The notes beneath the pieces were generated by a model. The model saw nothing but the letters and a program-made list of their open reading frames with translations. It made no database searches and was not told the DNA's origin. Below, one piece after another: positions 2,960 through 64,000 of a DNA stretch of 64,000 nt (positions within the stretch are counted from its first letter, which is position 1; every line of letters starts with the position of its first letter). The stretch spans positions 1,093-65,092 of the forward strand of contig JALWDZ010000026.1 of the NCBI GenBank assembly GCA_027039485.1, given 5' to 3'. The DNA comes from Candidatus Shapirobacteria bacterium. Its GTDB lineage: Bacteria; Patescibacteriota; Microgenomatia; UBA12405; UBA6130. The position numbers and the translations under genes were made by a program.

Positions 2960-2987
2960 TTTCCTTTTATTCTAACATTTTATTTAG

Positions 2988-15904: not shown

Positions 15905-15930
15905 CCGAGGTTAATTTTTTTAAAAAAATT

Positions 15931-24074: not shown

Positions 24075-24111
24075 TTACTTCAGTATAAACAATTGGTAAA
24101 GCGAAAATCAA

Positions 24112-28026: not shown

Positions 28027-28742
28027 CAGCTAATTAGAGCGGCGGCAACTAGAAACGGCCCAAAAGCAACTGCCGTTTTCCAATGGGCTCGGCGTCGCCA
28101 GAGAAGGAACCCGGCCCACAGCCCTCCGGCCAAAAAAGCTAGATAAAACAAAAATAGGAGGCGCTGCCAACCCAACCAAAGGCCAAGGACAAAAACTAAC
28201 TTAGCATCACCCAACCCCATTCCTTTTCGACCAGTAATCAGATAAAGGAAAAGAAAGAAGAAAAGCCCGCCAAAAGCAGCTAAAAAGTCCAACCGGGGGA
28301 GGAAAAGCACCAAAACCAGCAGGGAAAGGAGAAAAACATCGGGAATAATTTGGTAATGAGCGTCAAAAAAGAAAATGGCTAAGAGAAACCAAACCAAAAG
28401 CAAATACATTCCCAGCCACGGCCAGGCTAAATTTTGCTGCCGCCACCAAACAAAAGTAGCCAAAAACAATAGACCGCCTAAAAGTTCTAGAATAAACCAC
28501 TCGGGATTTACTTTAGCCCCGCAGGTCCGGCACCGGCCGCGCAACAAAAGGAAAGATAAAAGAGGGATATTTTCCCACCAAGCTAACTGGCGATTACAAT
28601 TGTCGCAGTGGGAACGGCCCCACAAATCCAACCCTCCCTTTTGGGGATAACGACTAATTAAAACACCCAAAAAGCTCCCCCCGCTCGCCCCAAGAGCAAA
28701 CAGGAGGAGCTCCCAAAATATCATCTTTACTGGGGCACACAT
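27987..28742 (-). CDS. pilD: prepilin peptidase (A24 family)
   Basis: N-terminal Zn-binding CDNC...CRTCGA, catalytic GMGLGDAKL motif, about 7 TM. Confidence 0.8.
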   Translation of the reverse strand: MCAPVKMIFWELLLFALGASGGSFLGVLISRYPQKGGLDLWGRSHCDNCNRQLAWWENIPLLSFLLLRGRCRTCGAKVNPEWFILELLGGLLFLATFVWWRQQNLAWPWLGMYLLLVWFLLAIFFFDAHYQIIPDVFLLSLLVLVLFLPRLDFLAAFGGLFFFLFLYLITGRKGMGLGDAKLVFVLGLWLGWQRLLFLFYLAFLAGGLWAGFLLWRRRAHWKTAVAFGPFLVAAALISWWWGDYILKLLPW

Positions 28743-29383
28743 TTAAACAATGAATTTGTTCTGTCTGTCCAAGTAGCACTATCTATTTGGCTCTGACTGG
28801 TAACTGCGGTAATCTGGGTTGGCACCCCATCGGCGGTAGTGATGCCCAAATCCTTAAGCTTTGAACTTAGTTTTCTGTTTGCCTTTGCTTTAGGAATAAA
28901 GCAAACATAAACGGCTCCGCCATTGCCTGCTTCTTTAAAAAGATAGAGTCTATTCAAATCACTCCTGATATTATCGGCAAAAGGATCCTTTTGGGCAAAA
29001 GAGGCCTTTAATTCATCCGTCTTTATCAACTCTCCATAATTGCCATTAGCATCCTTGCAGCTGGAAACTTCAGCATTATAAGAACTGCCCGCACAAACAC
29101 CAAAGCCCGGCATTTTGCTCGTTAAACCCAAAACCTGGGACTCGTCAGCTCCATTGCCTTCGCCCCAAACTTCATCATCCCACGGATAATATTCTTGGGA
29201 AGCATAGTACCGCTCCAAGGCGCTCAAAACTTCGGCGGCATCATTTTGAAATTTCGCATCCCGAGCCTTATTGGTTTGTTCTACTGGATTTAAAGTAGAA
29301 AGAACCGCCACCGACAAAATAGCAATTAAGGAAATAACAATCAATAACTCAACTAGAGTAAAACCTTGTTTCAGTTGTTTCAT
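28727..29383 (-). CDS. pilA: type IV pilin, candidate major pilin (immediately downstream of pilC)
   Basis: KQGFTLVELLIVISLIAILSVAVL, then NKARDAKFQNDAAEVLSALERYYAS, 218 aa. Confidence 0.65.
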   Translation of the reverse strand: MKQLKQGFTLVELLIVISLIAILSVAVLSTLNPVEQTNKARDAKFQNDAAEVLSALERYYASQEYYPWDDEVWGEGNGADESQVLGLTSKMPGFGVCAGSSYNAEVSSCKDANGNYGELIKTDELKASFAQKDPFADNIRSDLNRLYLFKEAGNGGAVYVCFIPKAKANRKLSSKLKDLGITTADGVPTQITAVTSQSQIDSATWTDRTNSLFKCVPQ

Positions 29384-29399
29384 CTTTTCACCCCCTTTC

Positions 29400-30602
29400 C
29401 TAAAATTGGCTGGTTAAGTTATAAATTGGCATAATCACGGCAAAAACTAAAAAGCCAACTCCAATACCTAACACTATCATGATAAGTGGCTCAATAGCAC
29501 TTGTCAAGGTTTTAACCCGTTGATCAGCTTCTATTTCAAAAAAATGAGCCAGGCGGAAAAGAATGGTATCCAATTTGCCTGTCTGTTCGCCGGTGGCAAC
29601 CATTTCTACCAGAATATCGGGGAAAATCATTTGTTCCCGCAACGACTCAGAAAGAGGAAAGCCCTTCTCGATCCGTTGGTCGACCCGTTCAAGAGCTTTC
29701 TGGTAAACCATATTACCGGCGGCTCGACTAATAGTTGCCACCCCATCTACCAAAGGCACCCCGGTATTAACCATCATCCCTAAAGTCCGGGTAAGATTGG
29801 TAAGAAGAGTGGCTTGCAAGAGAGGGCCTAAAATGGGTATCCGCAATTTTATTTCATCATACCGATAGCGCATCTCTGGTTGGCGCATTAAAACCTTCCC
29901 GGCCACCACTCCCGCCACTGCCAAGAAAGGTAAAAGCCAAACCAAAACGCCGCTTAAGCTGGCAATATCCATCAAGACGCGCGTTTCCCAAGGCAGTTGG
30001 GTATTAAATTCATTGTAAAGATTGGCCATCTTAGGAATGACAAAAGTTACCACAATAAAAATAACCCCTCCCATACCCACCAAAATAATCGCTGGATAAA
30101 TCATTGCCCCTTTTACCTTAGCCAAAAATTCTTGCCGTTTTTCCAAAGTATCCGCCAATTGCGTGAGCACCTTTTCTAAAACCCCAGCTTCCTCGCCGGC
30201 ACTGACTGAAGCAATGTAAATATCGCCAAATACCTCGCGATGCTTTTTTAGGGCCGCCGTAAAAGAGGAACCACCCTCGATATCGCGGAGAAGATCGCCA
30301 ATAACCAACTGCAACTTGCCGCTTTCCTGTTTTTCCAGTAAGGACAACGCTTCAGTCAATGGCAACCCGGCCTCAATCATCGTTGCCAGTCGGCGAGTAA
30401 AGGAGGCTACCTGCCCTCCCGAGACCCGGCTAAAGTGAAGGCGCAGCTTTTGCCAAAACGAAAGCTGATAAGGTTTAATGTCAACTAAAACCAAGCGGCG
30501 CTTTTTTACCAAAGAAATTGCTTCCCGCAAGTTGCGCGCCTCTACCAAGCCTTTATTGACTTTGCCTTGCCAATCTCGGGCTCGAAAAACGTATTTTTTC
30601 AT
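29400..30602 (-). CDS. pilC: type IV pilus inner-membrane platform protein PilC (GspF family)
   Basis: Two GspF repeats, 3 TM blocks, 400 aa. Confidence 0.85.
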   Translation of the reverse strand: MKKYVFRARDWQGKVNKGLVEARNLREAISLVKKRRLVLVDIKPYQLSFWQKLRLHFSRVSGGQVASFTRRLATMIEAGLPLTEALSLLEKQESGKLQLVIGDLLRDIEGGSSFTAALKKHREVFGDIYIASVSAGEEAGVLEKVLTQLADTLEKRQEFLAKVKGAMIYPAIILVGMGGVIFIVVTFVIPKMANLYNEFNTQLPWETRVLMDIASLSGVLVWLLPFLAVAGVVAGKVLMRQPEMRYRYDEIKLRIPILGPLLQATLLTNLTRTLGMMVNTGVPLVDGVATISRAAGNMVYQKALERVDQRIEKGFPLSESLREQMIFPDILVEMVATGEQTGKLDTILFRLAHFFEIEADQRVKTLTSAIEPLIMIVLGIGVGFLVFAVIMPIYNLTSQF

Positions 30603-30604
30603 TT

Positions 30605-31693
30605 TTACTCCGGTTTTATTATCGGCTGGCGGCGCTGCTGCTGTAAACTGCGCATTAATTCCTTAGGCCGGATAGCATATTCTTTGGCCACTTCAAGGCT
30701 AACGACCCCCTTATTAACCCAACTCGCCAAAGAAGTTTCCAAGAGGCGCATCCCCACTTCAGCTGAAGTTTGGATAATATTGTCAATCATATGGGTTTTA
30801 TCCTCACGGATAGCCGTCTGGACAGCGTGGTTATTTAGAAGAAGTTCAATGGCCGGCACCCGCCCCGGCTTGATGGTTGGAATTAGGCGCTGGGAAATAA
30901 CCGCCAAAAGGCTGTTGGCCAATTGCATTCGCACTTGGGCCTTAGCTCCGGTCGGAAAAACATCAACAATCCGGTCAATTGTCTCCGCTGCCGAATTAGT
31001 GTGCAAGGTAGAAAAAACCAGATGGCCAGTTTCGGCTACTGTCAAAGCAGCTTTAATCGTTTCCAAATCGCGCATTTCGCCAATCAAAACTACATTAGGG
31101 TCTTCGCGCAAAGCTGAGCGGAGGGCATTGGTCCAGCTGAGAGTATCGGAGCCAATTTCTCGCTGGGAGAAAACCGACTTTATGTCTTTGAAAAAATACT
31201 CAATGGGGTCTTCAATCGTCACAATATGCTCGGCCCGCGTTTCGTTAATCTCCCCCAACATAGCGGCTAGAGTGGTCGACTTACCATGGCCGGTGGGCCC
31301 GGTTACCAAGACAAAGCCCTGTCGTTCCTGAGTCAGTTTCCTTAGAATTGGCGGCAAATTTAAATCGTCAAGGCGGGGAATATTGGGAGGAATCAAACGC
31401 ATCGCTATTGCCAGGGAATCGCGTTGAAAATAGAAATTGACTCGAAAGCGCGCCTGGTCTTGAAAGACATAAGAAGAATCCATTTCCCGCTTGTCAAGAA
31501 GTTCCTGATATCTCTTCTCGCCCAACATCACCTTGGCCATGGCCATAATCTCCTCCTTGGCCATCGGCGTACCCTCGGGCAAACTAAAAAGCTGGCCATT
31601 AACCCGCAACAGGGGCCGCGCTCCTGCCAAAAGGTGGACATCTGAAGCCTTGTCCTTCACCGCCAGCGAGAGAATAGCTGCTAACTTATCCAT
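30605..31693 (-). CDS. pilT: twitching-motility retraction ATPase PilT
   Basis: Walker A GPTGHGKSTT, Asp box, His box, 362 aa, no N-terminal GSPII domains. Confidence 0.85.
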   Translation of the reverse strand: MDKLAAILSLAVKDKASDVHLLAGARPLLRVNGQLFSLPEGTPMAKEEIMAMAKVMLGEKRYQELLDKREMDSSYVFQDQARFRVNFYFQRDSLAIAMRLIPPNIPRLDDLNLPPILRKLTQERQGFVLVTGPTGHGKSTTLAAMLGEINETRAEHIVTIEDPIEYFFKDIKSVFSQREIGSDTLSWTNALRSALREDPNVVLIGEMRDLETIKAALTVAETGHLVFSTLHTNSAAETIDRIVDVFPTGAKAQVRMQLANSLLAVISQRLIPTIKPGRVPAIELLLNNHAVQTAIREDKTHMIDNIIQTSAEVGMRLLETSLASWVNKGVVSLEVAKEYAIRPKELMRSLQQQRRQPIIKPE

Positions 31694-31694
31694 G

Positions 31695-33479
31695 CTAATA
31701 TTTAGCCACCCGGAGAACTTCCTCCACGGTGGTAATACCCTCTAACGCCTTCAAATAGCCATCCTGCATCATCGTTACCATGCCCTCCTTTACAGCCGCT
31801 TTTTTAATTTCCTCGGCCGGCGCTTGTTTAAGGATAAGCTGCATAATTGCATTAGTCACCGGCAAAGTCTCAAAAATCCCAATTCGACCGTAATAGCCGG
31901 TAAAGTTGCACCCCTGGCAGCCTTTGCCGCGGTAAAGCTTTGGTTGGTCACCGGCTTTGGGGGGCCAAAGCGGGCCAAGCACTTTTTTCATTCCTTCAAC
32001 CACTTTTTCTGGCGGCTGGTAACTTTCCTTACAGTCATTATGGATCCGGCGGACAATCCGTTGGGCAACCACTGCGTTCAAAGCAGAAACTAGCAAAAAG
32101 GGCTCAACCCCCATATCAATTAACCGTGGCGCAGCTCCGGCAGCATCGTTAGTATGTAGTGTCGAAAAAACCAAGTGGCCAGTAAGGGCTGCCTCAACCG
32201 CCAGTTCAGCCGTCTCTTTATCGCGAATCTCGCCAACCATAATAATATCCGGATCCTGGCGCAAAAACGAACGCAGGGCCGACGCAAAAGTAAGCCCCGC
32301 CTGGGGATTTACCTGGACCTGGTTAACCCCTTTGATGTGGTATTCAACCGGATCTTCGATAGTCATCACGTTAACTTTGGTAGTGTTAATCTTAGAAAGA
32401 ACTGAATAAAGAGTAGTCGTTTTCCCGGCTCCAGTTGGACCGCAGACCACAATCATTCCGTGGGGGCGGCTAATGGCCTCTTGCAAATCGCGGAGTGTTT
32501 TCCCCCGCAAACCTAATTCTGGCAAGTCGGGAATTTTTTGCGTTTTCTTCAAAAGCCGCATAACTACCTTTTCGCCATAGACAGTCGGTGCTGTCGAAAC
32601 CCGGACGTCGATTTCCTGCCCATCACTGCGAAAAGTAAAGCGCCCATCCTGGGGCACCCGCTTTTCATCGATTTTCATATCGGCCAAAATTTTAATTCGG
32701 GAAACAACGGCATCATGGATCCGCCGCGGCAAAATAAGTTTCTCTTGCAAAATGCCGTCAATGCGGTAACGGACCCGGGTATCGCCCTCTTGGGGTTCAA
32801 TATGAATATCCGAAGCCCGGGCCTTGACCGCAAATTGCAAAATTGTCGAAACAACCTTGGCAATTGGCGCCTCGTGGATAATATTCTCCAGATGGTTAAC
32901 ATCCAAGACATTCTTTTGATAAGTTTTAGCCGTTTCCCCTAGGGCCTTAGTCACCTCGGCGGTAATTTCCTGGTTATAATGTTCGTCGATTGTCTCCTGG
33001 ATAAGCTTTTTATCAGCCAGGTAAGGCTCTATTTTTAAGCCTGTTTTCTTTTCCAAAAACTCCACCGTCTCCAAATCTAAAGGATTGGCCATAGCCACCG
33101 CCAGCTTTTTCTCTTTAGGGTCATAACGAAAGGGCACCACCAGATAATACTCGGCCACGCTTCGGGGAATAAAAGTAATGCTTTGGGGATCGAAAGCAAT
33201 TTCTTCTAAATCAGCATAGGGAACGCCCAAAAACTTCGCCTTAGCAGCTAGCAATTTCTTGGTGGGGATTAGATTTTCTTCATGAATAATATCTTCCACA
33301 TTCTTGCCGGTTTGAATTGCCTTTAGTTGAATATTTTTTACCTGGGCTGGCGAGAGCAGCTTCTCCTGGGCCAGAACGTCCAAAAGCGAGTGGGGCAGTT
33401 TTGTTTCTTCCATCACTTCCATTATAAACAAAATAAATCCCAAATCACAAGCACCCTGCCCCGACGGACGTCGGGGCAA
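31695..33479 (-). CDS. pilB: type IV pilus assembly ATPase PilB (GspE family)
   Basis: N-terminal GSPII domain, Walker A GPTGAGKTTT, tetracysteine CQGC..., 594 aa. Confidence 0.9.
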   Translation of the reverse strand: MPRRPSGQGACDLGFILFIMEVMEETKLPHSLLDVLAQEKLLSPAQVKNIQLKAIQTGKNVEDIIHEENLIPTKKLLAAKAKFLGVPYADLEEIAFDPQSITFIPRSVAEYYLVVPFRYDPKEKKLAVAMANPLDLETVEFLEKKTGLKIEPYLADKKLIQETIDEHYNQEITAEVTKALGETAKTYQKNVLDVNHLENIIHEAPIAKVVSTILQFAVKARASDIHIEPQEGDTRVRYRIDGILQEKLILPRRIHDAVVSRIKILADMKIDEKRVPQDGRFTFRSDGQEIDVRVSTAPTVYGEKVVMRLLKKTQKIPDLPELGLRGKTLRDLQEAISRPHGMIVVCGPTGAGKTTTLYSVLSKINTTKVNVMTIEDPVEYHIKGVNQVQVNPQAGLTFASALRSFLRQDPDIIMVGEIRDKETAELAVEAALTGHLVFSTLHTNDAAGAAPRLIDMGVEPFLLVSALNAVVAQRIVRRIHNDCKESYQPPEKVVEGMKKVLGPLWPPKAGDQPKLYRGKGCQGCNFTGYYGRIGIFETLPVTNAIMQLILKQAPAEEIKKAAVKEGMVTMMQDGYLKALEGITTVEEVLRVAKY

Positions 33480-33930
33480 ATTCTAATTACCAAAATCCTA
33501 ATCCGCCAGCTGGCGGACTAAACAAATTCAAATGACCAAAATTCAAATGCTCAAAAACATTGAAACTGTGTCATTCTGAGCGTTAGCGAAGCCCCAGGAC
33601 GTTCCGCCAGCTGGCAGAGTCGGGGTAAAAATCTAGCGAAGCGCATTAATCCCACACCTGACTAACTCTCATGCGCTCGCTCCGCTCGCTAGATCTTTAC
33701 CCCTACCGAAGGTGGATTTATTCCACCGAAGGGGGGCTTCGTCGCTTCGCTCCTCAGGATGACAAGGGGAGATGTCTTTTGTTTTGGTCATTTGATCATT
33801 AGGTAATTTGGTTATTGTTTAGGATTTGGGTCATTAGGATTTAGGATTTTGCTCAACCTAGTTCCTAGCTCCATTTGAACTTTTCACTTTCCCCTTCTTT
33901 CTCACTTTTCACTTTTCACTTAAACTTTTC
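33478..33930. repeat. nested-palindrome MITE/REPIN-like element, longest copy, core present as an inverted duplication
   Basis: Arms aaattctaattaccaaaatcctaatc.../...ggatttgggtcattaggatttaggatttt. Internal 230-nt imperfect hairpin built from two inverted copies of gtcatYctgag...gaagcccc...ggggtaaaRatctagcga. 3' cctag/cactttt tract. Confidence 0.8.
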
Positions 33931-49411: not shown

Positions 49412-50538
49412 ATCGTGGGTAATTCTAACAAATTCTTAGCTAACCACCAAAACGTTGCCGGCCATAATTTCAGCGGCGTAGTTTTCAAAAGATAACTAAA
49501 ATTGCGCCCCCGCTCTAAGAGGATCGGCCACCAATAACGGCGCCAGGTTCGAGAAGGATAGTTCTTGATTAGCAGCCACCACCAATTGCGCACCGTCATC
49601 CGCTGGCGCAAATTTCCCATCTTCCGGCTCGTGGCTCCACCCTGGTGATAAGCTACCAACTGGGGCAAAAAAAGCATCTGCCAGCCCCTTTCCCGCAACC
49701 GCAGAGCCAGATCGACATCTTCTAAATAAGCAAAAAAGCGTTCATCAAAACCGCCAGCAGCCAAAAAAGCGTCCCGGCGATAAACTACCGCCGCCCCATT
49801 AAGGCCATCCGCCAAATGCGGTTTTTTTAGCCAGGCTTTAAATTTTTTTCGTGCCTCCGACCATTTCCAACCATTGGCAATATTTTCCGCCCGACCCGGC
49901 AAAAAATACCGTAACCCTAAACTTTCAACCCGGCGGCCAGTTCGATCTAGCACTATTCCGCCAAAGGCGGCCACCCGCTGTTGCCGGTATTGCCATAGGA
50001 TTAGCTCTAAATTCGCCAGCCAATTATCAGCCAGGCGCACATCATCATTCAAGACCAAAAGATAATCGCCCCGGGCCGCCTTTGCCCCCTGATTCACCGC
50101 TCTCGCAAAACCAAGGTTTGTTTTATTAAAAATAGTTTTGATTACTATGCCAGGGGGTATGGAGAAGACGCTATCATCATGTTGGTTGTTCTCACCTTCA
50201 TTGTTGTTCCATGATTTTCTTCTCTCTTTTTTGTTTGGAATTTGAGGTTTGTAATTTTGATATTGTTTGTAATTTGCCTGCCTGCGCAGGCAGGGTGCTT
50301 GGTGCTTGGAATTTAATTCCTTGAGGAATTCTTTACTGCCATCATGAGAATTGTTATCAATGATGATTATTTCTAGGTTTTGTATTTGGTCATTTAAATT
50401 TTGATATTGTTTGTAATTTGCCTGCCTGCGCAGGCAGGGGATTTGGGATTTGGAATTTACAGCCCTAAAAAGGCTGTTGAGGCATTCTTGGAGAAGGTCT
50501 CGTCCCTGGAAATGGGGAATAATAACCGAAAGTTTCAT
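49369..50538 (-). CDS. glycosyltransferase family 2 carrying two in-frame repeat-derived insertions
   Basis: GT2 N-terminus (LSVIIPHF...CLNSL) and core (EIIIIDNNSHDGS, NLGFARAVNQG, ED motif). Two low-complexity inserts encode SKSQIPCLRRQANYKQYQN... Confidence 0.7.
   Translation of the reverse strand: MKLSVIIPHFQGRDLLQECLNSLFRAVNSKSQIPCLRRQANYKQYQNLNDQIQNLEIIIIDNNSHDGSKEFLKELNSKHQAPCLRRQANYKQYQNYKPQIPNKKERRKSWNNNEGENNQHDDSVFSIPPGIVIKTIFNKTNLGFARAVNQGAKAARGDYLLVLNDDVRLADNWLANLELILWQYRQQRVAAFGGIVLDRTGRRVESLGLRYFLPGRAENIANGWKWSEARKKFKAWLKKPHLADGLNGAAVVYRRDAFLAAGGFDERFFAYLEDVDLALRLRERGWQMLFLPQLVAYHQGGATSRKMGNLRQRMTVRNWWWLLIKNYPSRTWRRYWWPILLERGRNFSYLLKTTPLKLWPATFWWLAKNLLELPTIWRTRKPLSWLAKK
50140..50460. 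repeat. repeat-element-derived segment inside the GT2 gene (two copies of the palindrome CCTGCCTGCGCAGGCAGG plus ggatttgg k-mers)
   Basis: tttgatattgtttgtaatttgcctgcctgcgcaggcagg occurs twice (about 50268 and 50414). Near-identical to 53624..53900. Confidence 0.75.
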
Positions 50539-52949: not shown

Positions 52950-53987
52950 TTGGGCAAAAGCATTGCCCAAAAAAGTAAAACTTAAAACAAGACGATAAAG
53001 CCAAAGCGGGTAATGGTGCTTTCGTAAAAATAGGAAAAGCGAGGCAAAATAGCGCCGGTAAAATTGCCACCGCTCTTTCATTTTCCAATTTTTCCAACTC
53101 CCACCGCCAAAGTGAATTATTTCCGCCGCTGGCACCACCACCAACTTACCCAATCCTAATTTTTTAACTCGGTACGACCAGTCAACATCTTCAAAAAAGA
53201 AAAAATAATCCTCGTCAAGGCCTTTTGTTTTTTGCCAAACTGTCCGCCGAGCCAGCAAAGCTGCCCCCGGCAATTGTTCAACTGGCGTTGGCATTTTGCT
53301 CACCTGGCTAAAGACCAGCCACTTTAGCGGCGTGGCTGTCACCAGCCAGCGGCCGGCCAGGCTATGGTAAAACGCCATTTGCCAAAGGTTAGGAAAACGC
53401 ATATAGTAGCGCTGCTGAAAACTGCCGTCGGGGTTTAATAACCTAGGAGACACGGCGGCCACATCGCCATGTTTTTCTAAATAGCCCACCATCTTCTCTA
53501 AGGCTCCCTTCTTAACAATAGTATCTGAATTAAGAAGAAGGATATATTTGCCTCTGGCAATTCTTATTCCTTGGTTGTTAGCCTTTGCAAAACCAAGGTT
53601 TGTTTTATTAAAGATAGTTTTAATGGCTATGCCCTGGGGTATAGAAAAAATACCACTGTGTCGGTTATTTTCACTTTCACTGTCATTCTGAGATTTTCTT
53701 CTTTTCTTTTTGTTTAGAATTTGAGATTTGGGATTTGGAATTTGGGATTTGGAATTTAATTCCTTGAGGAATTCTTTACTGCCATCATGAGAATTATTAT
53801 CAATGATGATTATTTCCATGTTTTGAATTTGGTCATTTAAATTTTGATATTGTTTGTAATTTCCCTGCCTGCGCAGGCAGGGAATTTGGGATTTGGAATT
53901 TACAGCCTCAAAAAGGCTGTTGAGGCATTGTTGGAGGAGATCCTTAGTGTTGTAATTGACAATGATAATGGAGAGGAGAGGACTCAT
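52881..53987 (-). CDS. glycosyltransferase family 2 carrying in-frame repeat-derived insertions (paralog of 49369..50538)
   Basis: LSIIIVNYNTKDLLQQCLNSL, EIIIIDNNSHDGS, NLGFAKANNQG, DEDYFFFFEDVDW. Inserts encode SKSQIPCLRRQGNYKQYQN... and SQIPNPKSQILNKKKRRKS... Confidence 0.7.
   Translation of the reverse strand: MSPLLSIIIVNYNTKDLLQQCLNSLFEAVNSKSQIPCLRRQGNYKQYQNLNDQIQNMEIIIIDNNSHDGSKEFLKELNSKSQIPNPKSQILNKKKRRKSQNDSESENNRHSGIFSIPQGIAIKTIFNKTNLGFAKANNQGIRIARGKYILLLNSDTIVKKGALEKMVGYLEKHGDVAAVSPRLLNPDGSFQQRYYMRFPNLWQMAFYHSLAGRWLVTATPLKWLVFSQVSKMPTPVEQLPGAALLARRTVWQKTKGLDEDYFFFFEDVDWSYRVKKLGLGKLVVVPAAEIIHFGGGSWKNWKMKERWQFYRRYFASLFLFLRKHHYPLWLYRLVLSFTFLGNAFAQLLRERLTRAKVQWRLWRWLWDF
53624..53900. 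repeat. repeat-element-derived segment inside the GT2 gene (palindrome CCTGCCTGCGCAGGCAGG, tandem gggatttggaattt)
   Basis: Near-identical at nucleotide level to the 50140..50460 segment (e.g. gaatttaattccttgaggaattctttactgccatcatgagaatt). Confidence 0.75.
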
Positions 53988-56889: not shown

Positions 56890-57250
56890 ACCTACCTGTG
56901 CAGGCAGGCAATACTAAAATCCTAAATTCAAAATCCTAAACTATAAACAAATTCAAATGACCAAAATCCAAATGTTCTAAACATTTCTTTTTCTTTGCCT
57001 TTTTCTTTTGTTTTGGTCATTTGGTTATTTAATCATTTGGTAATTGTTTAGGATTTGGGTCATTAGGATTTAGGATTTGTTTGTGATTTGGTGTTTGGGA
57101 TTTGGAATTTGGTGCTTTTTTGACCTAGTTCCTCCAACCTAGCTCTTAGTTCCACTTTAACTTCTTTTCCACTTTACACTTGAATTTTTCACTTCCTTAG
57201 CCCTTCGCCCTTAGCTCTTAGCCCCTTCTTACCTAGTTCCTAGTTCCAAT
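56890..57250. repeat. nested-palindrome MITE/REPIN-like element (no GC core; degenerate CCTG...CAGG palindrome at left end)
   Basis: Arms ...aaaatcctaaattcaaaatcctaaactataaac.../...ggatttgggtcattaggatttaggatttg. Contains gtgtttgggatttggaatttgg, the same k-mers as the GT inserts. Long cctagttcctag tract. Confidence 0.8.
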
Positions 57251-58246
57251 CACCTTCTTCAGCACTCTGCCCAATTTAACCGGACTATGGCGGAGGCGCA
57301 TATTTTGCTTTTCAATAATGGCCACATCGGCAACCAAAGGTTTAGGTTGTAATTTTCTATCCACTTTAATTGGCTGGGAGTGCTCATAGCGATAAAGCCG
57401 CCATACTTTAGCCAACTGTTTCTTTGGTAAAGCCTGCCAATCAGGCATAATAACAACATCAAAAGGCCGATTCACCCGCAAATAACGGCGGAAAATTGCT
57501 AGATAATCTCGCTGGGTGCCCCACCGGCTTTCGTTAGCTACTGTCATCAAATTAGCAATCAAAATTTTCTTGGCTCGGCTTTGGCGGTAAGCAGCCGCCA
57601 TGCCCCGTGGCAAAAAATTAGCCAGCAATGACCCGTACAAACTGCCCGGGCCGATAATGATAACCTGGCTTTCTTTAATCGCCTGAATAGCCTCCGGATT
57701 TGCTCGTACCCGTGGCTCCAGCCAAATCTTCTTTACCCGGTCGGTTGACATCCGCTGCAAATCCAAATAATGTTCGCCGCGGTACTCTTGGCCGCTTAAA
57801 GTCCGAAAAGCCAAATCTGCCGGCTCGGTGGCTACCGGCACTACCCGCCCGGCTAACTTGACACCCATTAGCTCCTGAAAAAATTTGTCGGCCTGATTAA
57901 TATCCCCCAATTTCTCCACCAAAAAGCGAAAGAAACTGTTGCCAAAATTTCTTCCCCGCCCATCTCGATAGCGCAACATTTCTTGCCACAGCTTTTTCCT
58001 TTTTCCATCCCGCCAAAGAGAAATCAATGCCCGCCAATAATCAGAAAACGCTAAAAGCTGCCCTCTCTCATCGGTGCGCATCCGCCCAGTATCACCGCCG
58101 CTATCAAAAGTAGTTACCACCGAAACAATATTCTGGAACCCAGCCCGAAGGAGGGCCCTGTTAGTAACCGGCATGCCCGACCCGCCGCCGACAGTACAAA
58201 TCCTCATTACTCCATTATAACGCCCCAATGCTAAATAAAATCTCAA
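57233..58246 (-). CDS. yvcK: YvcK/CofD-like gluconeogenesis-factor family protein (UPF0052)
   Basis: MRICTVGGGSGMP...VTTFDSGGDTGRMR signature. The true start is probably the internal MRICTVGGG. Confidence 0.75.
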   Translation of the reverse strand: MRFYLALGRYNGVMRICTVGGGSGMPVTNRALLRAGFQNIVSVVTTFDSGGDTGRMRTDERGQLLAFSDYWRALISLWRDGKRKKLWQEMLRYRDGRGRNFGNSFFRFLVEKLGDINQADKFFQELMGVKLAGRVVPVATEPADLAFRTLSGQEYRGEHYLDLQRMSTDRVKKIWLEPRVRANPEAIQAIKESQVIIIGPGSLYGSLLANFLPRGMAAAYRQSRAKKILIANLMTVANESRWGTQRDYLAIFRRYLRVNRPFDVVIMPDWQALPKKQLAKVWRLYRYEHSQPIKVDRKLQPKPLVADVAIIEKQNMRLRHSPVKLGRVLKKVIGTRN

Positions 58247-58665
58247 ACAAATCCTAAATCCTAATGACCCAAATCCTAAACCTGCCTGCGCAGGCAGGTA
58301 AATCTAAAATTCAAATGACCAAATGACCGAAACCTTGTCACCCTGAACGAAGCTGAAGGCGGAGTGAAGCCCCAGCACGTTCCGCCAGCCGGCGGAGTCG
58401 GGGTAAAGATCTAGCCGAAGGCGCATGGAAAAGGATATTAGGGTATCAGGTTAATTTTCTTTTTTCTTTTTCTTTCTTTCTCTGTTCTTCTGATCTCTGA
58501 TTCTCTTTCCCTGATTACCTAATTCTTCCTGATATTCTACATTATTTAATCCCCTTTTCTTTACTGAGTTCTAAGTTCTGAATATCTAAATGTTTAGAAC
58601 ATTTGGATTTTGGTCATTTGATATTGTTTAGAATTTAGGATTTAGGATTTTGAATTTATCTTCTT
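58245..58665. repeat. nested-palindrome MITE/REPIN-like element with perfect palindrome and GC-rich core
   Basis: caaatcctaaatcctaatgacccaaatcctaaacctgcctgcgcaggcaggtaaatc... Core gtcaccctgaacgaagctgaaggcggagtgaagcccc...cggggtaaagatctagccgaaggcgcatgg. Right arm ...ggattttggtcatttgatattgtttagaatttaggatttaggatttt. Confidence 0.8.
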
Positions 58666-58686
58666 CAGATGCTGTAAAATTAGAGG

Positions 58687-59163
58687 ATGAAAATTTTGGG
58701 CATTGATCCCGGCTTAGCGGCAACTGGTTGGGCAATTGTTGAAAAAGCCAAAACGCCCCTCCTTGGCGACTATGGCTGCATCACTACCGCTAAAACTGCT
58801 TCTTTTGCCAGCCGCCTTGATGCTATTTTCCGCAAGAGCCAGGCAATTATCCGTCAATACCGGCCTGATATTTTAGCTATCGAAGAGCTATTTTTTGCCA
58901 AAAACAGCAAAACTGCCATTAATGTGGCCCAGGCCATGGGGGTGGTGAAGCTTGCTGGCCAACAGGCCAATATTCCCGTTATCGGCTACACCCCCCTCCA
59001 CATTAAAATTGCCATCGTTGGTTACGGCCGGGCCGACAAGCACCAGGTAGAATTTATGGTCAAGAAAATTCTCCACCGCCGGGAAAGCATCAAGCCTAAC
59101 CATGCCGCCGACGCCGTTGCTGTCGCCCTGACCCACTTATTTCAAAACCCCCAGCTAAAATGA
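58687..59163 (+). CDS. ruvC: crossover junction endodeoxyribonuclease RuvC
   Basis: MKILGIDPGLAATGWAIVE (catalytic Asp7), RNase H-like fold, 158 aa. Confidence 0.85.
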   Translation: MKILGIDPGLAATGWAIVEKAKTPLLGDYGCITTAKTASFASRLDAIFRKSQAIIRQYRPDILAIEELFFAKNSKTAINVAQAMGVVKLAGQQANIPVIGYTPLHIKIAIVGYGRADKHQVEFMVKKILHRRESIKPNHAADAVAVALTHLFQNPQLK

Positions 59164-60623
59164 AAAAGAAAATAACTTATGCTTTATTGACCATTTTTAC
59201 TCTCCTCGGTTTCTATTGGCGCCTGGCTGGCCTCCGGCAAGGCTATTCCTTTTGGACCGACGAGAATCATGTAGCCATTTTCGCCCGGGCAATTCTCCGC
59301 CGCCAAACCCCTGTTCTCGACAACGGCTACAACACCGGCCTTTACCAATATCTTTGGTATTGGCTCACCGCCCTGCCCATGGCCCTAATTTCACCCCCCG
59401 AATTTGCCGCTCGCTTACCGGCAGTTTTCTTTGGCCTAGCCACTATTCTCATGGTTTATCTCCTTGGCCGGGAATTTTTTGACCCCCTCAGCGGCTTATT
59501 GGCCAGTTTTTTGGCAGCATTTTTGCGCATTGAAATCCTCTGGTCCCGCCAGGCCCGCCCCTACCAGGCTTTGCAATTTTTCCTTCTCCTGGCCGCCTTC
59601 CTGCTTCTTCGCTATTCCAAAAGTCCCAACCGCCGCCAGAAAATAGCCTATTTTGCGGGATTTTTGCTAACCGCCGTTCTGGCCAGCCTCTGCCACGGTC
59701 TCGGCCTCCTCATTTTCCTCGACGGCTTTCTCTTTCTCCTTTTGACCTCTCCCTCCCTCTCGCTCATCGCCGCCACCGGCGTTGCCACCATCCTTCTCAG
59801 CCTGCCATTCCACAAACTTTTATTAGCCATCCTCGCCAAACTGGGCCAGACCAACAATCTTTTCTACTACCGCGTTCTCCTTACTCATCATTATTTGCCT
59901 CTAACCATTCTGGCCGGCCTTGGTTTTTTCTGGCTCGGCTACCAAAGCTTCCGCCAGCCAAAATTGCGCGCCCCCTTCCTTCTTCTCACCATCCCCTTAG
60001 TCATCCAGACTCTGGTAGTTAGCCTTGCCCTTGGCCAACCCTTCGTCCGCTATTTTTACATTACCTTTCCCTTCCTCATTCTTCTGGCTGTTAGCCCATT
60101 TTTTCTCGCCCAGCATTTAGTTCCCCCAAAACGCTTTCTGGCCCTTAGCCTCGTCAGCCTTCTTCTTCTCGCTACCCTGCCCCAACTCGCCCTCCGACCC
60201 CAGAAATATTATTCCCTTAACCGCGATATGCAAGAAATTCCCGAAGTCGATTGGCAAAAAATTTATGCCCTGGTAAAAGCCTGGCGCCAAAGTCACCCCC
60301 AGGCACCGCTGGTAGTCAATTGGAATGATCTGCCAGTTTGGTATCTTGGGGAAAATCTTAGCCACCTTTACCTGCTCCGCTCTGCCCCCGCTTCCTATGA
60401 CCCACTTTCTGGAGCCAAAATTCTCCACTCAACCAATGAGCTAAAAAAACTTATCCACCAATACCCCGCCGGCTTAATCGTCCTTGATAGCTGGGATGAC
60501 CGGGTTCCCGCCGGCGTCCGCCAATATTGCCGGCAAAATCTCCACCATGAAGCCGAGGTTCGCCAACTTTTTCCCCGCCAGCCCCGCCCCTGGCCAGTTA
60601 ATATTTATTCCTGGCCTCTTTAA
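59160..60623 (+). CDS. GT39/ArnT-like polytopic membrane glycosyltransferase
   Basis: About 11-12 TM, N-terminal FWTDENHVA (DE motif in the first extracytoplasmic loop), C-terminal soluble domain. Confidence 0.5.
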   Translation: MKKKITYALLTIFTLLGFYWRLAGLRQGYSFWTDENHVAIFARAILRRQTPVLDNGYNTGLYQYLWYWLTALPMALISPPEFAARLPAVFFGLATILMVYLLGREFFDPLSGLLASFLAAFLRIEILWSRQARPYQALQFFLLLAAFLLLRYSKSPNRRQKIAYFAGFLLTAVLASLCHGLGLLIFLDGFLFLLLTSPSLSLIAATGVATILLSLPFHKLLLAILAKLGQTNNLFYYRVLLTHHYLPLTILAGLGFFWLGYQSFRQPKLRAPFLLLTIPLVIQTLVVSLALGQPFVRYFYITFPFLILLAVSPFFLAQHLVPPKRFLALSLVSLLLLATLPQLALRPQKYYSLNRDMQEIPEVDWQKIYALVKAWRQSHPQAPLVVNWNDLPVWYLGENLSHLYLLRSAPASYDPLSGAKILHSTNELKKLIHQYPAGLIVLDSWDDRVPAGVRQYCRQNLHHEAEVRQLFPRQPRPWPVNIYSWPL

Positions 60624-61989
60624 GGGCCTGTTTTTCCAACATTTGCCAAAAGCGCTGCCTTTCTTGAGGGGTTGCCTTCTGGGAATCATAATAGGTAAAC
60701 CAAACCCGATTGCTCGCCTTCTTTCTGCCAGCGCCATCTTTCACTTGGACCCAAATCCAGCCGGTTTTCGAAAGTAAGGGGTCAATTTCTACTACAATCA
60801 GCTTATCGCTCCACGCTTTTATTCTCTGGGGCCGGCCAGCTAAGAAAACCTCCGAGGTAAAAGGCAAATTGCGAAAATTGCGCCCATAGATTTTCACCGC
60901 CATATAACGGCTGGCAATATCGGGATCTATCCGTAGAATGTAGGGTTGGAATTCAAATTTAGCCCGCGCATAACGAAAAATCCTCTGGTTGCCCCGCCAA
61001 AACAACAAAAGCAAGCCAACCAAAATTATTTTCCGCCATCGCCAAGTCGCTCTTTTTTTTAGCCAGAAAATTATTGCCAGAAAAATTAAAATGAGCCAGA
61101 ATCCTAGCAAATAAGGCAAAAGCCGGCCACCGAATTCCAGCCAAAATTTATTTTCAAAAAACCGCCGGTAAAATTGGATTTCCCGACTTATGCCCAATAT
61201 TCCTAAAATCCCCAATATTCCCCCGGTAATTTCCCAAAAATATTTAGCCGCCACTAATGCTAAAGTCAAGATTACCTTTCCTATTGCTGCCATGCCCCGC
61301 CACCACCAACTCCTTCGTTCCCTCATTGTTACCAAATCTCGCGCCCACTGTTCCCGTTTCACTATCAACACCACCACCGCCTTTTGCGTTAGCAGACTAA
61401 TGCCCACTAGCATATACCTCACCAGCCCCTTTATCACCCACCCCGTCAGCGTTATCAGCCTTCTATCCGCGCCATCCGCATGTATACTATCCGCGTCATC
61501 CGCGTTCTCCGCTCCCATCAGCATTATCCGCGCTCTTATACCATCCGCGCTATCTGCGAGTTTTTTAATAAACTCGTCAAAATCCCGCCAACCTCCTTCT
61601 ATATCGCCCACAGGGCGTATATCGTCCCGCTTGCGGGGCATATTTCTATTTGTATCGCTCGCGCCAGCGAGCATGTTTCTATGTATTTCTATTAATTGTT
61701 GGATAACGCCAACCACCAGAAACATATAAGTCCAGATAGCCGCTTTTTCAGCAATTGCTTCTTGTTTGGCCATTAACAAAAAGGGGCACATCATCAAGAA
61801 AATAAGGGCCCCAAAAATAGAAAACCGCCCCTCCAGCCGCCAGCCGATCACCGCCCCAATCCAAATCGCCGTCAATCCCATAATCACCACATCCGATGTA
61901 AACCGGAAAACAAAAATATCCATCAAAATGCCGACAATTGCCGCGATTAAAAAGAAATTACGGTGATGAATAAAATATTTTTTAATCAT
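60598..61989 (-). CDS. hypothetical polytopic membrane protein with C-terminal Ig/IPT-like domain, interrupted by REP-derived in-frame segments
   Basis: N-terminal TM helices, central region encoded by atccgcg-rich and GC-hairpin repeats (...NMLAGASDTNRNMPRKRDDIRPVGD...), C-terminal beta-rich domain. Confidence 0.4.
   Translation of the reverse strand: MIKKYFIHHRNFFLIAAIVGILMDIFVFRFTSDVVIMGLTAIWIGAVIGWRLEGRFSIFGALIFLMMCPFLLMAKQEAIAEKAAIWTYMFLVVGVIQQLIEIHRNMLAGASDTNRNMPRKRDDIRPVGDIEGGWRDFDEFIKKLADSADGIRARIMLMGAENADDADSIHADGADRRLITLTGWVIKGLVRYMLVGISLLTQKAVVVLIVKREQWARDLVTMRERRSWWWRGMAAIGKVILTLALVAAKYFWEITGGILGILGILGISREIQFYRRFFENKFWLEFGGRLLPYLLGFWLILIFLAIIFWLKKRATWRWRKIILVGLLLLFWRGNQRIFRYARAKFEFQPYILRIDPDIASRYMAVKIYGRNFRNLPFTSEVFLAGRPQRIKAWSDKLIVVEIDPLLSKTGWIWVQVKDGAGRKKASNRVWFTYYDSQKATPQERQRFWQMLEKQALKEARNKY
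61430..61700. repeat. REP-like GC-rich hairpin cluster (tandem tatccgcg motifs plus gtcccgcttgcggggc and cgctcgcgccagcgagc hairpins)
   Basis: Hairpins with 7-bp GC stems in AT-rich background, matching units in 62985..63880. Confidence 0.7.
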
Positions 61990-62594
61990 TCCTTATAATA
62001 CGCATCTTCTGCCCAATTACGAGGATTATTAACAATATATTGGCGAATGTTTTCCAATGATTTCTGATTTCTAATAATTCGTTCGTAATAATTGCGTTGC
62101 CAAATTTTGCCGGCAAACGGCGGCCAATTATGTTGTTTTACATTGCGGATATATTCGTTGGTGGTCATCCGTTTAAACCATGAAATATACCGCCCCAACC
62201 CTTCATATGTATTCGGGATATTTCGTTTCGTCTGTAGGGGCGATTCCGTGTAATCGCCCTGTTGATCCGGCGATTCCGTTAACGGGCGAAAACATGGTTT
62301 CGCCAAATCATCCGGGCGAAAACATGGTTTCGCCCCTACAATTTGAATAATGCCGTGGATGTGGTTGGGCATAATAATAAATTCATCCAATTGTATCCGA
62401 CGATATTTCGCCGGTAATTTTTGCCACCAACGGTACACCATTCTGCCAATTTTGTTCATTACCATTTCGCCATTTTCTATTCGACCAAATAAATTCACCC
62501 GATTATGCACACAAATGGTAATAAAATAATATCCGGGTTGGCGATAATCGTAATTTGGCAACCTAATTGTCCTCCTATGAAAAATTTTTGCCAT
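61986..62594 (-). mobile_element. REP-associated tyrosine transposase (RAYT; IS200-like Y1 transposase) with an in-frame palindromic insertion
   Basis: HuH motif IMPNHIHGII, C-terminal WQRNYYERIIRNQ...YIVNNP block typical of 'transposase IS200-like' (PF01797) REP-associated enzymes. Duplicated 24-nt palindrome gggcgaaaacatggtttcgcc at 62270..62340 encodes AKPCFRPDDLAKPCFRP. Confidence 0.75.
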
Positions 62595-62602
62595 CTAATT
62601 CG

Positions 62603-64000
62603 TTAATGTATTAATTTTTTAAGAATTAATGTGTATCCTAGATATCCTACTGATCCCATTAAGGTCATCAGACTTATAAACAACCCAATGTAGAAAAACC
62701 GCTGGGGCCAGAATTCGACAATCAATTCATAATTTTCCCGCCCGCCAACATCGCTGGGTTTGATATACCAACTATTGGCATAGCCATTCACCAAATAATG
62801 CCGGTCTTCGGCAATTGGTTGTTTGCCCCAGGTTTCAAAAGTGGCCGGTTCCAAAAAGGTCATCCGGTGCGTGCCTTCTTTTATCTCGCCATTAAAATAA
62901 CTAGCCACCTCCGGCCCGTATCCCTTATTCTTCAAAAACCACCCCGTCACCCTCGCCGCCACTTTCCCCACAATTCCCATTAAATTATTTCTATTTGTAT
63001 CGCTCGCGCTAGCGAGCATGTTTCTATTTGTTTCGCCCCGTAAGGGCATATTTCGCGCCGAAGGCGCATATAACTTCCACCCTTTATGAAAACTTTCTGA
63101 AAACACCAGCGTATACGGCCCCTTCGCCCCGGTTACTTTTACCCGATATTTTGTCGGATTGATTTTGACAAACTCTATTTTAGGAAACCCTTTTTCAGTT
63201 TCATGAGCCGAAGACAGATTTATATCGTCCGAAGGGCTTGTATCGTCCCGCTTGCGGGACATATTTCTATTTGTATCGCGAGCGTCAGCGAGCTTATTTC
63301 TATCTATATCTTGTTTGTAATTTAGAATCTGTTTATTAATTTTCGAATTCGTTAATAAATTAATTGACTTTAATATAATCTCCGGTACTATAACCCGCCT
63401 CACTTCCAATTTCGCCAACGCCCCCACCTCAACCCCTTTTAATACCAATCGCCCTTCATCGGCAAAATTGCCAGCTTTAAAATAAGCAACAAAACTATTT
63501 CCGTTTGTATCGCCCGCAGGGCGTATTTCGCGAGCTCCGCTGTGGCGGGGCGAGCTTGTTTCGCGAGCGCCAGCGAGCATGTTTCCATCTATTTCTTTAA
63601 TTATTTTCCATTCCTCACCTTCTTTCCTTTCCTCTATTAAAATCTCCCCCGCCGGCTTTACCCCCTTCTTTAGCCGCCCTTCCACCCGATACCACTCTCT
63701 TCCCCTATATTCACCTATCCTTAGGGCAAAATTATTTTCTTCCTTTTTATCGCGAGCGTTAGCGAGCGTGTTTCTGTCTGTATCGCCCGCAGGGCTTGTA
63801 TCGTCCCGCTTGCGGGGCATGTTTCTATTTGTATCGCTCGCGTTAGCGAGCATATTTCCATTTATATCTATCAAATTTTTACTTAATCCCCTTATCGGTA
63901 AAACTATTTCCTGTTTTCCCGCCTTAAAATACCTCTCCCCCCACTCTTGCCACCCACTTATATCGCCCGAAGGGCTTGTATCGTCCCGCTTGCGGGACAT
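62603..64000 (-). CDS. hypothetical tail-anchored protein heavily invaded by in-frame REP-like units (5' partial; ORF continues past the window end)
   Basis: C-terminal TM (FFYIGLFISLMTLMGSVGYLGY). Peptide NMLA.ASDTNRNMPRKRDDTSPAGD recurs at least 5 times, each encoded by the same ~85-nt triple-hairpin DNA unit. Confidence 0.35.
   Translation of the reverse strand: MSRKRDDTSPSGDISGWQEWGERYFKAGKQEIVLPIRGLSKNLIDINGNMLANASDTNRNMPRKRDDTSPAGDTDRNTLANARDKKEENNFALRIGEYRGREWYRVEGRLKKGVKPAGEILIEERKEGEEWKIIKEIDGNMLAGARETSSPRHSGAREIRPAGDTNGNSFVAYFKAGNFADEGRLVLKGVEVGALAKLEVRRVIVPEIILKSINLLTNSKINKQILNYKQDIDRNKLADARDTNRNMSRKRDDTSPSDDINLSSAHETEKGFPKIEFVKINPTKYRVKVTGAKGPYTLVFSESFHKGWKLYAPSARNMPLRGETNRNMLASASDTNRNNLMGIVGKVAARVTGWFLKNKGYGPEVASYFNGEIKEGTHRMTFLEPATFETWGKQPIAEDRHYLVNGYANSWYIKPSDVGGRENYELIVEFWPQRFFYIGLFISLMTLMGSVGYLGYTLILKKLIH
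62985..63880. repeat. array of dispersed ~85-nt REP-like triple-hairpin units (copies near 62990, 63230, 63490, 63750, 63960)
   Basis: The unit is catgtttctatttgtatcgctcgcgNtagcgagcat, then gtcccgcttgcgggacat, then gcccgaagggc; each block has a 4-7 bp GC stem. Confidence 0.75.

Follow-up and report, generated by a model that had tools for sequence, protein, structure and literature searches.

A palindromic dispersed repeat with nested mini-palindromes and a hairpin conserved across phyla in a genome of the Candidate Phyla Radiation

Introduction

Does a GC-rich module that recurs in a genome of the Candidate Phyla Radiation (CPR) encode a structured RNA? The module was noticed at 58330-58430 of a 64,000-nucleotide stretch of DNA from a Candidatus Shapirobacteria bacterium (contig JALWDZ010000026.1 of assembly GCA_027039485.1), which is called the window throughout the paper. 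The initial annotation of this stretch, made from the sequence alone, had proposed a small structured RNA, such as a regulatory RNA or a ribozyme-like motif, carried as cargo by a hairpin element. Our analysis gave a different answer. What recurs is a single arm of a palindromic DNA unit. With a probability of roughly 60% this arm belongs to a dispersed DNA palindrome with nested mini-hairpins, similar to repetitive extragenic palindromic (REP) sequences, to the hairpin-forming REP doublets (REPINs) and to bacterial interspersed mosaic elements (BIMEs), and is not a structured-RNA gene.

Results and Discussion

Recurrence and Anatomy of the Module

The 16-mer GGGGTAAARATCTAGC was found at four positions of the window without mismatch. 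By chance 0.10 occurrences were expected, and none of 100 shuffled sequences reached four. The 5' ends of the same four copies each carry GTCAYYCTGARSR, and the copies are connected by the repeat families D14 (53 nt, 91%) and I2 (49 nt, 92% complementary) of the repeat finder. The GC content within 58337-58426 was 0.63 compared to 0.38 and 0.30 in the flanks. Thus, the recurrence of the module, its coordinates and orientations (Table 1) and its high GC content were confirmed. We were aware of the fact that the surroundings are of low complexity and that short-read assemblies break within such repeats, which would favor low-complexity sequence, an assembly artefact or chance as explanation of the recurrence. 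Chance was excluded by the counts. An identical architecture in the independent assemblies of four metagenome-assembled genomes (MAGs), and the generic arm in at least 120 viral contigs versus none for a scrambled control, leave this whole explanation with practically no probability.

A total of 13 full units from the window and the four MAGs share one architecture, in which two inverted arms and a centre of 25-40 nt form one unit. The first half reads 5'-GTCATYCTGA-(loop cassette)-GAAG-(optional insert)-RATCTAGC-(mini-hairpin)-CGCA and is followed by the centre; the mirror half reads TGCG-CTCGCWCYGCTC-GCTAGATY-CTTC-(cassette)-TCAGRATGAC-3'. The orientation of the centre is not constant, being inverted in the related locus L019 (417-547). 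The basic arm is a hairpin of 27-41 nt with an unpaired head (T)GTC, a 5-bp stem ATYCT/AGRAT and a short tail, and its loop is centred on a GCGNAGC or GCGNNAGC mini-hairpin between GA/GA. The apexes of the arms exactly match DNA mini-hairpins (GCGAAGC, GCGTTAGC, GCGCTAGC), and the segment following RATCTAGC is also an exact mini-hairpin (GCGAAGC, GCCGAAGGC). The sequences GCGNAGC, GCGNNAGC and CCGAAGG form extraordinarily stable DNA mini-hairpins with two G-C pairs plus sheared G·A and a melting temperature of ~76 °C (PMC13037366).

In an alignment of 30 arms (A2) the GC-rich core formed a clean optional block of 41 columns, located exactly between GAAG and RATCTAGC, with 13 arms carrying and 17 arms lacking it. 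The insert has the form CCCC-(hairpin)-GGGGTAAA, and its hairpin comes in two unrelated sequence classes, AGGACG..CGTC for class I, as in arm D of the window, and CCTTCGGTA for class II. Some inserts hold a further palindrome of 13-16 nt in their own loop. The 16-nt palindrome TCCGCCAGCYGGCGGA is nested in the class I loop of arms A and B and of the related locus L087 and also stands alone at 33502-33517; GGAATAAATCCAC is nested in class II inserts of four arms, where it is flanked by the 7-nt direct repeat CTTCGGT. Compensatory changes in paired segments, as claimed initially, were not confirmed. The segments named for them (gcgttagcgaag, gaggagcgaagcgacgaag and gaacgaagctgaag) are all purine-rich and therefore cannot pair with each other. 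Alignment A2 shows that these supposed partners are loop cassettes which replace one another in the arm; further examples of such cassettes (GCGYTAGCGAAG, GGAGC..AGCGACGAAG and ACGAGCCGCCAGGCGAAGTGAAG) are purine-rich as well. Pairing of the 5' variable with the 3' variable segment was ruled out, both being purine-rich, and a protein-coding module was ruled out because indels between copies disrupt the frame.

Covariation Identifies the Single Arm as the Folded Unit

The R of RATCTAGC is the pairing partner of position 6 in the arm. Among 32 arms 15 T:A, 13 C:G, four C·A and no T·G combinations were found (Fisher p 7e-6). For 28 distinct rows, 12 CG, 12 UA and four other pairs were counted, and none of 500 shuffles reached the observed score. 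The same was seen for 171 arms among the listed matches in the IMG/VR collection, with 93 C:G, 75 T:A and three other pairs (p 4e-45). This base pair is the middle pair of the 5-bp ATYCT/AGRAT stem which closes each arm on itself. It lies outside the GC-rich core and belongs to the hairpin of the insert-less arm. The insert splits the stem between AG and RAT, and an insert is present in three of the four arms with the exceptional C·A combination.

The long hairpin between the two arms of a unit was tried and rejected as the selected structure, since Watson-Crick pairing of position 6 between arms was limited to 4 of 13 units, versus 28 of 32 cases within arms. Pairing within but not between arms identifies the single arm, rather than the GC-rich core or the long hairpin joining both arms, as the folded unit of selection. 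Doublets combining one C:G arm with one T:A arm made up 35 of 45 distinct viral doublets among the matches listed, compared to 50% expected (p 1.5e-4, a value which ignores relatedness among doublets). In the CPR units this combination was found in 9 of 13 cases.

Tests of a Structured RNA

A structured RNA or ribozyme-like motif was not supported. Using Rfam 15 at the gathering threshold, only tRNAs were detected in the window and in 12 related loci. In E-value mode up to 10, the regions 58200-58700, 33400-33900 and L079 1100-1520 yielded noise only, and neither the sequence of the arm nor that of the mini-palindrome insert is found in Rfam 15. For the GC-rich core of 16 insert-bearing arms, RNAalifold gave five pairs, none of which had changed on both sides (0 compensatory pairs); the near-invariant CCCC/GGGG clamp alone was predicted. 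Folding of the solo arm resulted in z=-1.5, and 17 of 200 shuffles folded as well. The full unit folded equally on both strands (z -6.9 and -6.6), which is the behavior of a DNA palindrome. Nearest-neighbor folding predicted the arm hairpin with an unremarkable energy (z -0.6 to -0.8), because conventional thermodynamic models fail to account for the stability of mini-hairpins (PMC13037366).

A unit or arm might nevertheless be transcribed and act as RNA, either as a cis-acting stem-loop for mRNA stability or processing or as a small RNA. It could form a barrier to RNase III or to exonucleases, a role put forward for REPs and Correia elements, with the insert as an added helix. We regard such a role as unlikely. 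The strong covariation of a single base pair of the arm stem would agree with it, but the insert splits this sole covarying stem, with the C·A exceptions mostly in insert-bearing arms, and the GC-rich core itself is without compensatory change. Changes in the CCCC/GGGG clamp are from C to U with the wobble pairs kept, and the class II insert shows a CUUCGG loop in the orientation of the arm; on the other hand, no Rfam family matched at any threshold, the solo arm reached only the z value given above, and a GCGNAGC loop with a free N is a motif of DNA stability. Units are located between genes of the same operon direction and are thus probably co-transcribed. Their polarity corresponds to the gene direction in L215, L142, L117 and L152, including seven units in intergenic gaps of the phage-like contig L215; in L151 and the window it runs against the genes. 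Solo arms on viral contigs were oriented 24 times in sense and 18 times in antisense to the flanking genes (p 0.44) and hence showed no orientation bias. Equal folding of both unit strands also argues against an RNA, as does a sister genome which lacks the unit at the orthologous position (see below).

Several other candidates were discarded. A hammerhead-like CUGA..GAA was ruled out by inspection and by the lack of any Rfam ribozyme match. An intrinsic terminator, as no T-run follows the arms, and a CRISPR repeat were ruled out as well. The integron attC site has the ends RYYYAAC ... GTTRRRY, while those found here are GTCATYC ... GRATGAC, and neither a cassette array nor an integrase was present.

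Backbones, Empty Sites and Presence/Absence

A larger inverted repeat of low complexity (AAATCCTAA.. / ..TTAGGATTT), termed backbone, surrounds the unit, which lies at its centre, and backbones also exist empty. The initial idea of a cargo therefore held. The resulting composite repeats of 165-420 bp are found in several intergenic regions and consist of at least five module types. Three positions of the backbone (Table 1) hold single hairpins of the insert types with variant loops. The region upstream of pilB in the sister genome S016_97 (WFSR01000062; PilB 93% identical) contains the same promoter-proximal backbone and mini-hairpin types, and the unit is missing at this orthologous site, the centre there being ..AAAAAAGATGACAAGGATG... 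In the same sister genome the whole composite of 33431-33850 recurs at a non-syntenic position (L069 37-379; 76% identity over 398 nt), and its arm matching arm B is without the insert. A Logan contig of the window's own genome begins at position 58602, in the right arm of the backbone 85 nt upstream of ruvC. Such an assembly break inside the backbone is expected for a dispersed repeat.

Table 1. Arms, units, backbones and associated hairpins in the window.
Feature	Position	Strand	Sequence or remark
GGGGTAAARATCTAGC site	19828-19843	-	
GGGGTAAARATCTAGC site	33622-33637	+	
GGGGTAAARATCTAGC site	33688-33703	-	
GGGGTAAARATCTAGC site	58400-58415	+	
Arm A, solo	58337-58426	+	full copy of module; no mirror arm after it
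Arm A, head and stem			GTCACCCTGA
Arm A, loop cassette	58347-58365		
Arm A, GAAG	58366-58369		
Arm A, insert	58370-58407		CCCC..GGGGTAAA
Arm A, nested palindrome	58381-58396		TCCGCCAGCCGGCGGA
Arm A, 3' part	58408-58415		GATCTAGC, then mini-hairpin GCCGAAGGC and GCAT
Full unit, arms B and C	33570-33763	+	
Centre of unit B/C	33638-33687		
Arm B	33570-33637	+	full copy of module
Arm B, class I insert	33592-33629		
Arm B, nested palindrome	33604-33617		CCGCCAGCTGGCAG
Arm C	33688-33763	-	full copy of module; class II insert
Arm C, nested palindrome	33711-33727		GGTGGA..TCCACC
Full unit, arms E and D	19749-19882	+	
Centre of unit E/D	19787-19827		
Arm E	19749-19786	+	fifth, variant arm; extended hairpin CCCGCCCTTTCTTATGAAAGAGCGGG in place of loop
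Arm D	19828-19882	-	full copy of module; un-nested class I insert CCCCAAGACGTAACGTCGGGG
Backbone around unit B/C	33431-33850		AAATCCTAA.. / ..TTAGGATTT
Stand-alone mini-hairpin	33457-33478		TGCCCCGACGGACGTCGGGGCA; insert type
Stand-alone mini-hairpin	33502-33517		TCCGCCAGCTGGCGGA; insert type
Backbone around unit E/D	19604-19965		
Stand-alone hairpin	19647-19664		CCCCCCCTTCGGTAGGGG; insert type, sequence of class II insert core
Backbone around arm A	58238-58657		encloses solo arm A and foreign pyrimidine-rich module
Arms of backbone around arm A	58238-58336, 58588-58657		repeat families I1, I4, I6, I8
Stand-alone hairpin	58280-58299		ACCTGCCTGCGCAGGCAGGT, GC-rich palindrome of CCTGCCTGCGCAGGCAGG type; upstream of cofD-like gene
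Empty backbone	15606-15770		centre ..caaaacatctttGTCATctttcttttgttttgg.., without unit
Second empty backbone	56916-57110		
Hairpin of second empty backbone	56891-56908		CCTACCTGTGCAGGCAGG; variant of CCTGCCTGCGCAGGCAGG hairpin, upstream of ruvA

Further repeats accompany the backbones. The pyrimidine-rich module (..CTGATCTCTGATTCTC..) at 58432-58595, which together with a purine-rich arm of the GATATCAG type makes up an inverted repeat, takes the place of the right half of the unit beside arm A. It is another dispersed repeat of the clade, with two copies in L087 (5184-5303 and 6611-6769, 77-82% identity). Low-complexity runs of the CTAGTTCCTAG type follow each right arm of a backbone (19965-20020, 33850-33880, 57120-57240), and their reverse complement GGAACTAGGAACTAGG adjoins elements in related MAGs. 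In the MAG S014_63, units are arranged in tandem (L079 1166-1474; L037 1889-2180; L019 819-914) and have an outer inverted repeat TTTGTAAGGGAACC.CCTACTCCC, unlike the AAATCCTAA backbone of the window's clade. About 200 nt are duplicated at 50232-50499 and 53692-53942 (family D5, 93% identity), at the ends of long open reading frames (ORFs) in a glycosyltransferase-rich region. Backbone-like repeats related to D5 carry CCTGCCTGCGCAGGCAGG hairpins at 50277, 50421 and 53861.

Genomic Neighborhood

The neighbors of the elements are housekeeping genes, namely cofD-like, ruvC, glycosyltransferase, pilB, ruvA, recG, PBP1 and RNase III genes. A promoter-like TTGTGA-18-TATAAT is located at 33450-33421 on the minus strand directly upstream of pilB, and L102 of the sister genome has it as well. 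On the strand of this pilB promoter, the hairpin TTTAGTCCGCCAGCTGGCGGATTAGG of the backbone with the T-rich run after it is terminator-like.

This arrangement raises the possibility that the repeats are non-mobile and that the host retains them as architectural sites in its DNA or as sites of protein binding, for example for a nucleoid protein, a topoisomerase, priming, or as insulator or terminator. All composites are found just upstream of minus-strand promoter regions, as exemplified by pilB, where terminator-like backbone hairpins directly precede the promoter. The arms, however, are not terminator-like, as no T-run follows them. A near-invariant arm across distant hosts would suit a protein recognition site, and such mini-hairpins occur at priming and replication signals (PMC13037366), but presence both in cellular MAGs and in numerous virus-like contigs disfavors one host-specific factor. 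Moreover, the unit is missing from the orthologous site of the sister genome, other backbones are empty, and the composition varies like a mosaic, in that inserts are optional and some arms are truncated or solo. Host-kept sites of this kind therefore appear quite improbable to us, more so than an RNA.

Most genes of the window are encoded on the minus strand. The GC skew was negative in nearly every 2-kb bin, with a minimum of -0.30, and from ~4 kb onwards the cumulative skew declines with hardly an interruption. A one-directional cumulative skew of the whole chromosome was described for the Microgenomates order UBA1400 (PMC7143001). The minus-strand region 21761-33413 is a type IV pilus operon with genes for PilB, a PilT-like ATPase, PilC, a prepilin peptidase and PilM and with about ten pilin-like genes sharing an N-terminal methylation motif (family D6). 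The real start of PilB is probably at 33413, because its homologues comprise 572 aa. Genes for tRNAs were found at 1285-1747, 2874-3070 and 15821-15906, namely six in a cluster (Val, Phe, Gly, Gly, Gln, Lys), two for Leu and one for Tyr, the last directly to the right of the empty backbone at 15606-15770. At 61598-64000 arrays of GC-rich short hairpins (GCTCGCGCCAGCGAGC, CCCGCTTGCGGG, GCCCACAGGGC) with TAT(A/T)TC-like spacers (families D1, D3, D10) fall into the minus-strand ORFs 60598-61989, 61986-62594 and 62603-64000, none of which had a Pfam match. These arrays may be repeats of coding sequence, or non-coding elements where ORFs were called wrongly.

Relatives and the Wider Family

A scan with the 16-mer, covering one genome per species, yielded 97 stretches, of which 12 were real relatives. 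Seven of these contigs belong to Candidatus Microgenomates S016_97 (WFSR01) and three to S014_63 (WFRL01); of the other two, one is in an "Anaerolineae" bin and one in an unclassified bin. All named relatives of PilB belonged to Shapirobacteria, Microgenomates or Patescibacteria, save one labelled "bacterium". A scan of the JGI metagenomes for GAAGCC-N-GGGGTAAARATCTAGC gave three matches, all due to chance. One unit was met by chance in an unrelated MAG (L045). The window contains five arms in its 64 kb, and several arms per contig were found in the relatives.

The insert-less arm (GTCATYCTGAGCG-N-AGCGAAGRATC) was much more widespread. Using the pattern GTCATYCTGAGCG-N(2-14)-CGAAGRATC, it was detected in at least 120 IMG/VR contigs, whereas a composition-matched scrambled pattern was found in none. 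All further counts for viral arms refer to the matches listed. The arms mostly formed inverted doublets, and their apex was GCG-N-AGC with GA on both sides and a free N (C 31, A 28, G 18, T 12). A looser pattern applied to the same loci revealed 255 arms, 96 of which make 48 convergent doublets with spacer modes of 16 and 39 nt. The subfamily with the 39-nt spacer has a CTAAGTACCA-like centre in common with the CPR units. Arms were depleted in ORFs (44% of arms versus 84% ORF coverage of the sequence), and no protein family consistently adjoined them. Forms specific for the CPR were scanned for in IMG/VR as well, with 0 matches for the full unit, 0 for the CTAGC-extended doublet and one chance match for the insert-bearing arm. 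The arm had no match in cultured phages and one match in plasmids (Planktothrix). A search of the searchable literature for the sequences of arm and insert found neither, only unrelated primers.

The phage-like contig L215 (712-12728; IMGVR_UViG_3300031555-type) contains seven doublets of 110-120 nt with a 39-nt spacer and one polarity in the gaps between structural genes. Each of these units lies inside a further conserved inverted repeat TCGTTTA..CCACCGCACCT / ATGCGTTTTAGG..GAAACGA. Such units were also observed in L142 and L117.

We tentatively propose, at somewhat less than even odds, that the arm (T)GTCATYCTGAGCG-N-AGCGAAGRATC and its heteroallelic doublets may constitute an undescribed hairpin-doublet superfamily of CPR, other uncultured bacteria and many uncultured phages which would be moved by a hairpin-recognizing enzyme. 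In the Microgenomates clade of the window, GC-rich mini-palindromes of 13-38 nt would form a second layer and insert site-specifically into stems and loops of the first, similar to the SDRs of Nostoc (see below) but outside the cyanobacteria.

Possible Mode of Spread

From the arm anatomy, the covariation at the level of the arm, the wider family and the presence/absence polymorphism, all observed directly, we infer how the dispersed palindrome might behave. The element would act and spread as DNA, with arms extruding as single-stranded hairpins or cruciforms. A trans-acting enzyme recognizing hairpins might copy the arms; an HUH/Y1 transposase of the RAYT/IS200 kind would be the obvious candidate, and none was found. 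Alternatively, gain and loss could proceed via hairpin-mediated replication slippage and recombination. New palindromes may land preferentially in loops and centres of existing ones, which would result in the observed nesting. Effects on the host, such as the separation of transcription units upstream of the pilB, ruvA and cofD-like promoters, would be secondary.

Several observations weigh against a mobile DNA palindrome. Target-site duplications were not found at the flanks of the units, and the polymorphic sites are compatible with insertion and deletion alike. No transposase or dedicated enzyme was present among the 30 ORFs of the window scanned with Pfam, nor did an enzyme adjoin the arms in 120 viral loci, where ORF clusters and arm-flanked ORFs were inspected by eye without Pfam. 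A functional RNA or a protein-binding site would be compatible as well with the strict sequence conservation of the arm across very different hosts and with its one covarying pair. Three C-to-U changes in the CCCC clamp retain U·G pairs in the orientation of the arm, which is a weak hint at RNA, and three window copies are all of one polarity (+ strand). Copy counts refer to 64 kb of the genome.

For the interpretation of the locus, the candidate non-coding RNA is removed, and the neighboring "hairpin element" observations are explained as one nested palindromic mosaic. The genomes of CPR bacteria are regarded as streamlined, with little mobile DNA. The complete Microgenomates genome Ch65 was reported to be devoid of mobile-element genes (PMC7143001). 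The Microgenomates genome analyzed here carries composite repeats of up to ~400 bp in several intergenic regions. These repeats break short-read assemblies and yield spurious ORFs, which has a bearing on MAG quality. Across at least 120 virus-like contigs of uncultured origin the basic hairpin hardly changes at any base, and it has no known enzyme; its spread poses the same question as that of the CGTC-type REPs. The GCGNAGC apex with its free N and the single covarying pair offer a precise target for tests of hairpin-specific HUH nucleases or primases.

Comparison With Known Systems

The element shares with the DNA mini-hairpins of the literature the exact apex matches and the free N; these are described as a structural motif at origins and promoters (PMC13037366), while a dispersed repeat family was found here. 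REPs and REPINs (PMC2817692, PMC3116915) are likewise short imperfect palindromes with an unpaired head and a short tail, intergenic and multi-copy, which usually occur as two inverted copies around a spacer, and the doublet folds into a long hairpin. Correspondingly, insert-less arms of 27-41 nt were multi-copy and depleted in ORFs, and doublets were found as 13 CPR units and 48 convergent viral pairs. The apex ..AAGCGgAGCGC.. is given for enterobacterial REPs (Nunvar 2010, Table 1), and GCGNAGC is frequent in REPs (PMC2817692). There are clear differences. The head is (T)GTC instead of GTAG, the stem consists of five Watson-Crick pairs plus G·A pairs, the arm is nearly identical across very different hosts while REPs are lineage-specific, and arms are invaded by further hairpins. 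In 228 of the 255 viral arms T precedes GTC, so that the head is neither GTAG nor CGTC. A gene for the Y1 transposase associated with REPs (RAYT) was found neither among the 30 ORFs of the window (Pfam) nor among the neighbors of viral arms (by eye). The element is REP/REPIN-like in its working but departs from two defining features, as its head is not GTAG and an associated RAYT gene was not found among the ORFs inspected.

The CGTC-tagged REPs, which include RPE-4/6 of Rickettsia and dRS3 of Neisseria (PMC3733652), resemble the element in that their head ends with GTC, the stem starts with A-T, the tail has 3 nt, and they are mostly dimers, occur in several phyla and have no known dedicated transposase. 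They differ by a C before GTC, compared to T in ~90% of the arms here. By their description, on which alone the comparison was based, they have stems of 8-9 bp, loops of 4-5 nt and a CCA tail; in the arms described here the stem consists of 5 bp plus GA/GA and GC/GC, the loop is GNA, and the tail reads CTC or CTAGC.

Miniature inverted-repeat transposable elements (MITEs) such as Correia, ERIC, RUP and Nezha are also non-coding and intergenic, measure 100-200 bp, have terminal inverted repeats and are present or absent between relatives. The inverted repeats GTCATYCTGA / TCAGRATGAC were found here, with no flanking direct repeat and no insertion sequence with these ends seen, and the arms are self-folding hairpins instead of simple terminal inverted repeats.

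The behavior of the inserts resembles that of small dispersed repeats (SDRs) of Nostoc. These were reportedly described by Elhai et al. in 2008 as units of tens of nt inside other repeats, tandem heptamers and hairpin loops, and are said to be seen as presence/absence between homologous sequences and to extend the host hairpin. In the same manner, the insert of arm B is missing from the matching L069 arm, TCCGCCAGCYGGCGGA occurs both alone and nested, and GGAATAAATCCAC is nested in class II with the CTTCGGT repeat. SDRs belong to cyanobacteria, while the inserts analyzed here are GC-rich and of 13-38 nt.

BIMEs of E. coli and the neisserial intergenic mosaic elements are, like the repeats of the window, mosaics of palindromic units in alternating orientation and short motifs. 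In BIMEs two unit types, the Y and Z palindromic units, which differ at few positions, alternate, and this resembles the pairing of C:G with T:A arms. The sequences are unrelated, and the nesting of palindromes within palindromes is much deeper here. Taken together, the element is a palindromic dispersed repeat with a hairpin conserved across phyla and with nested mini-palindromes in a CPR genome.

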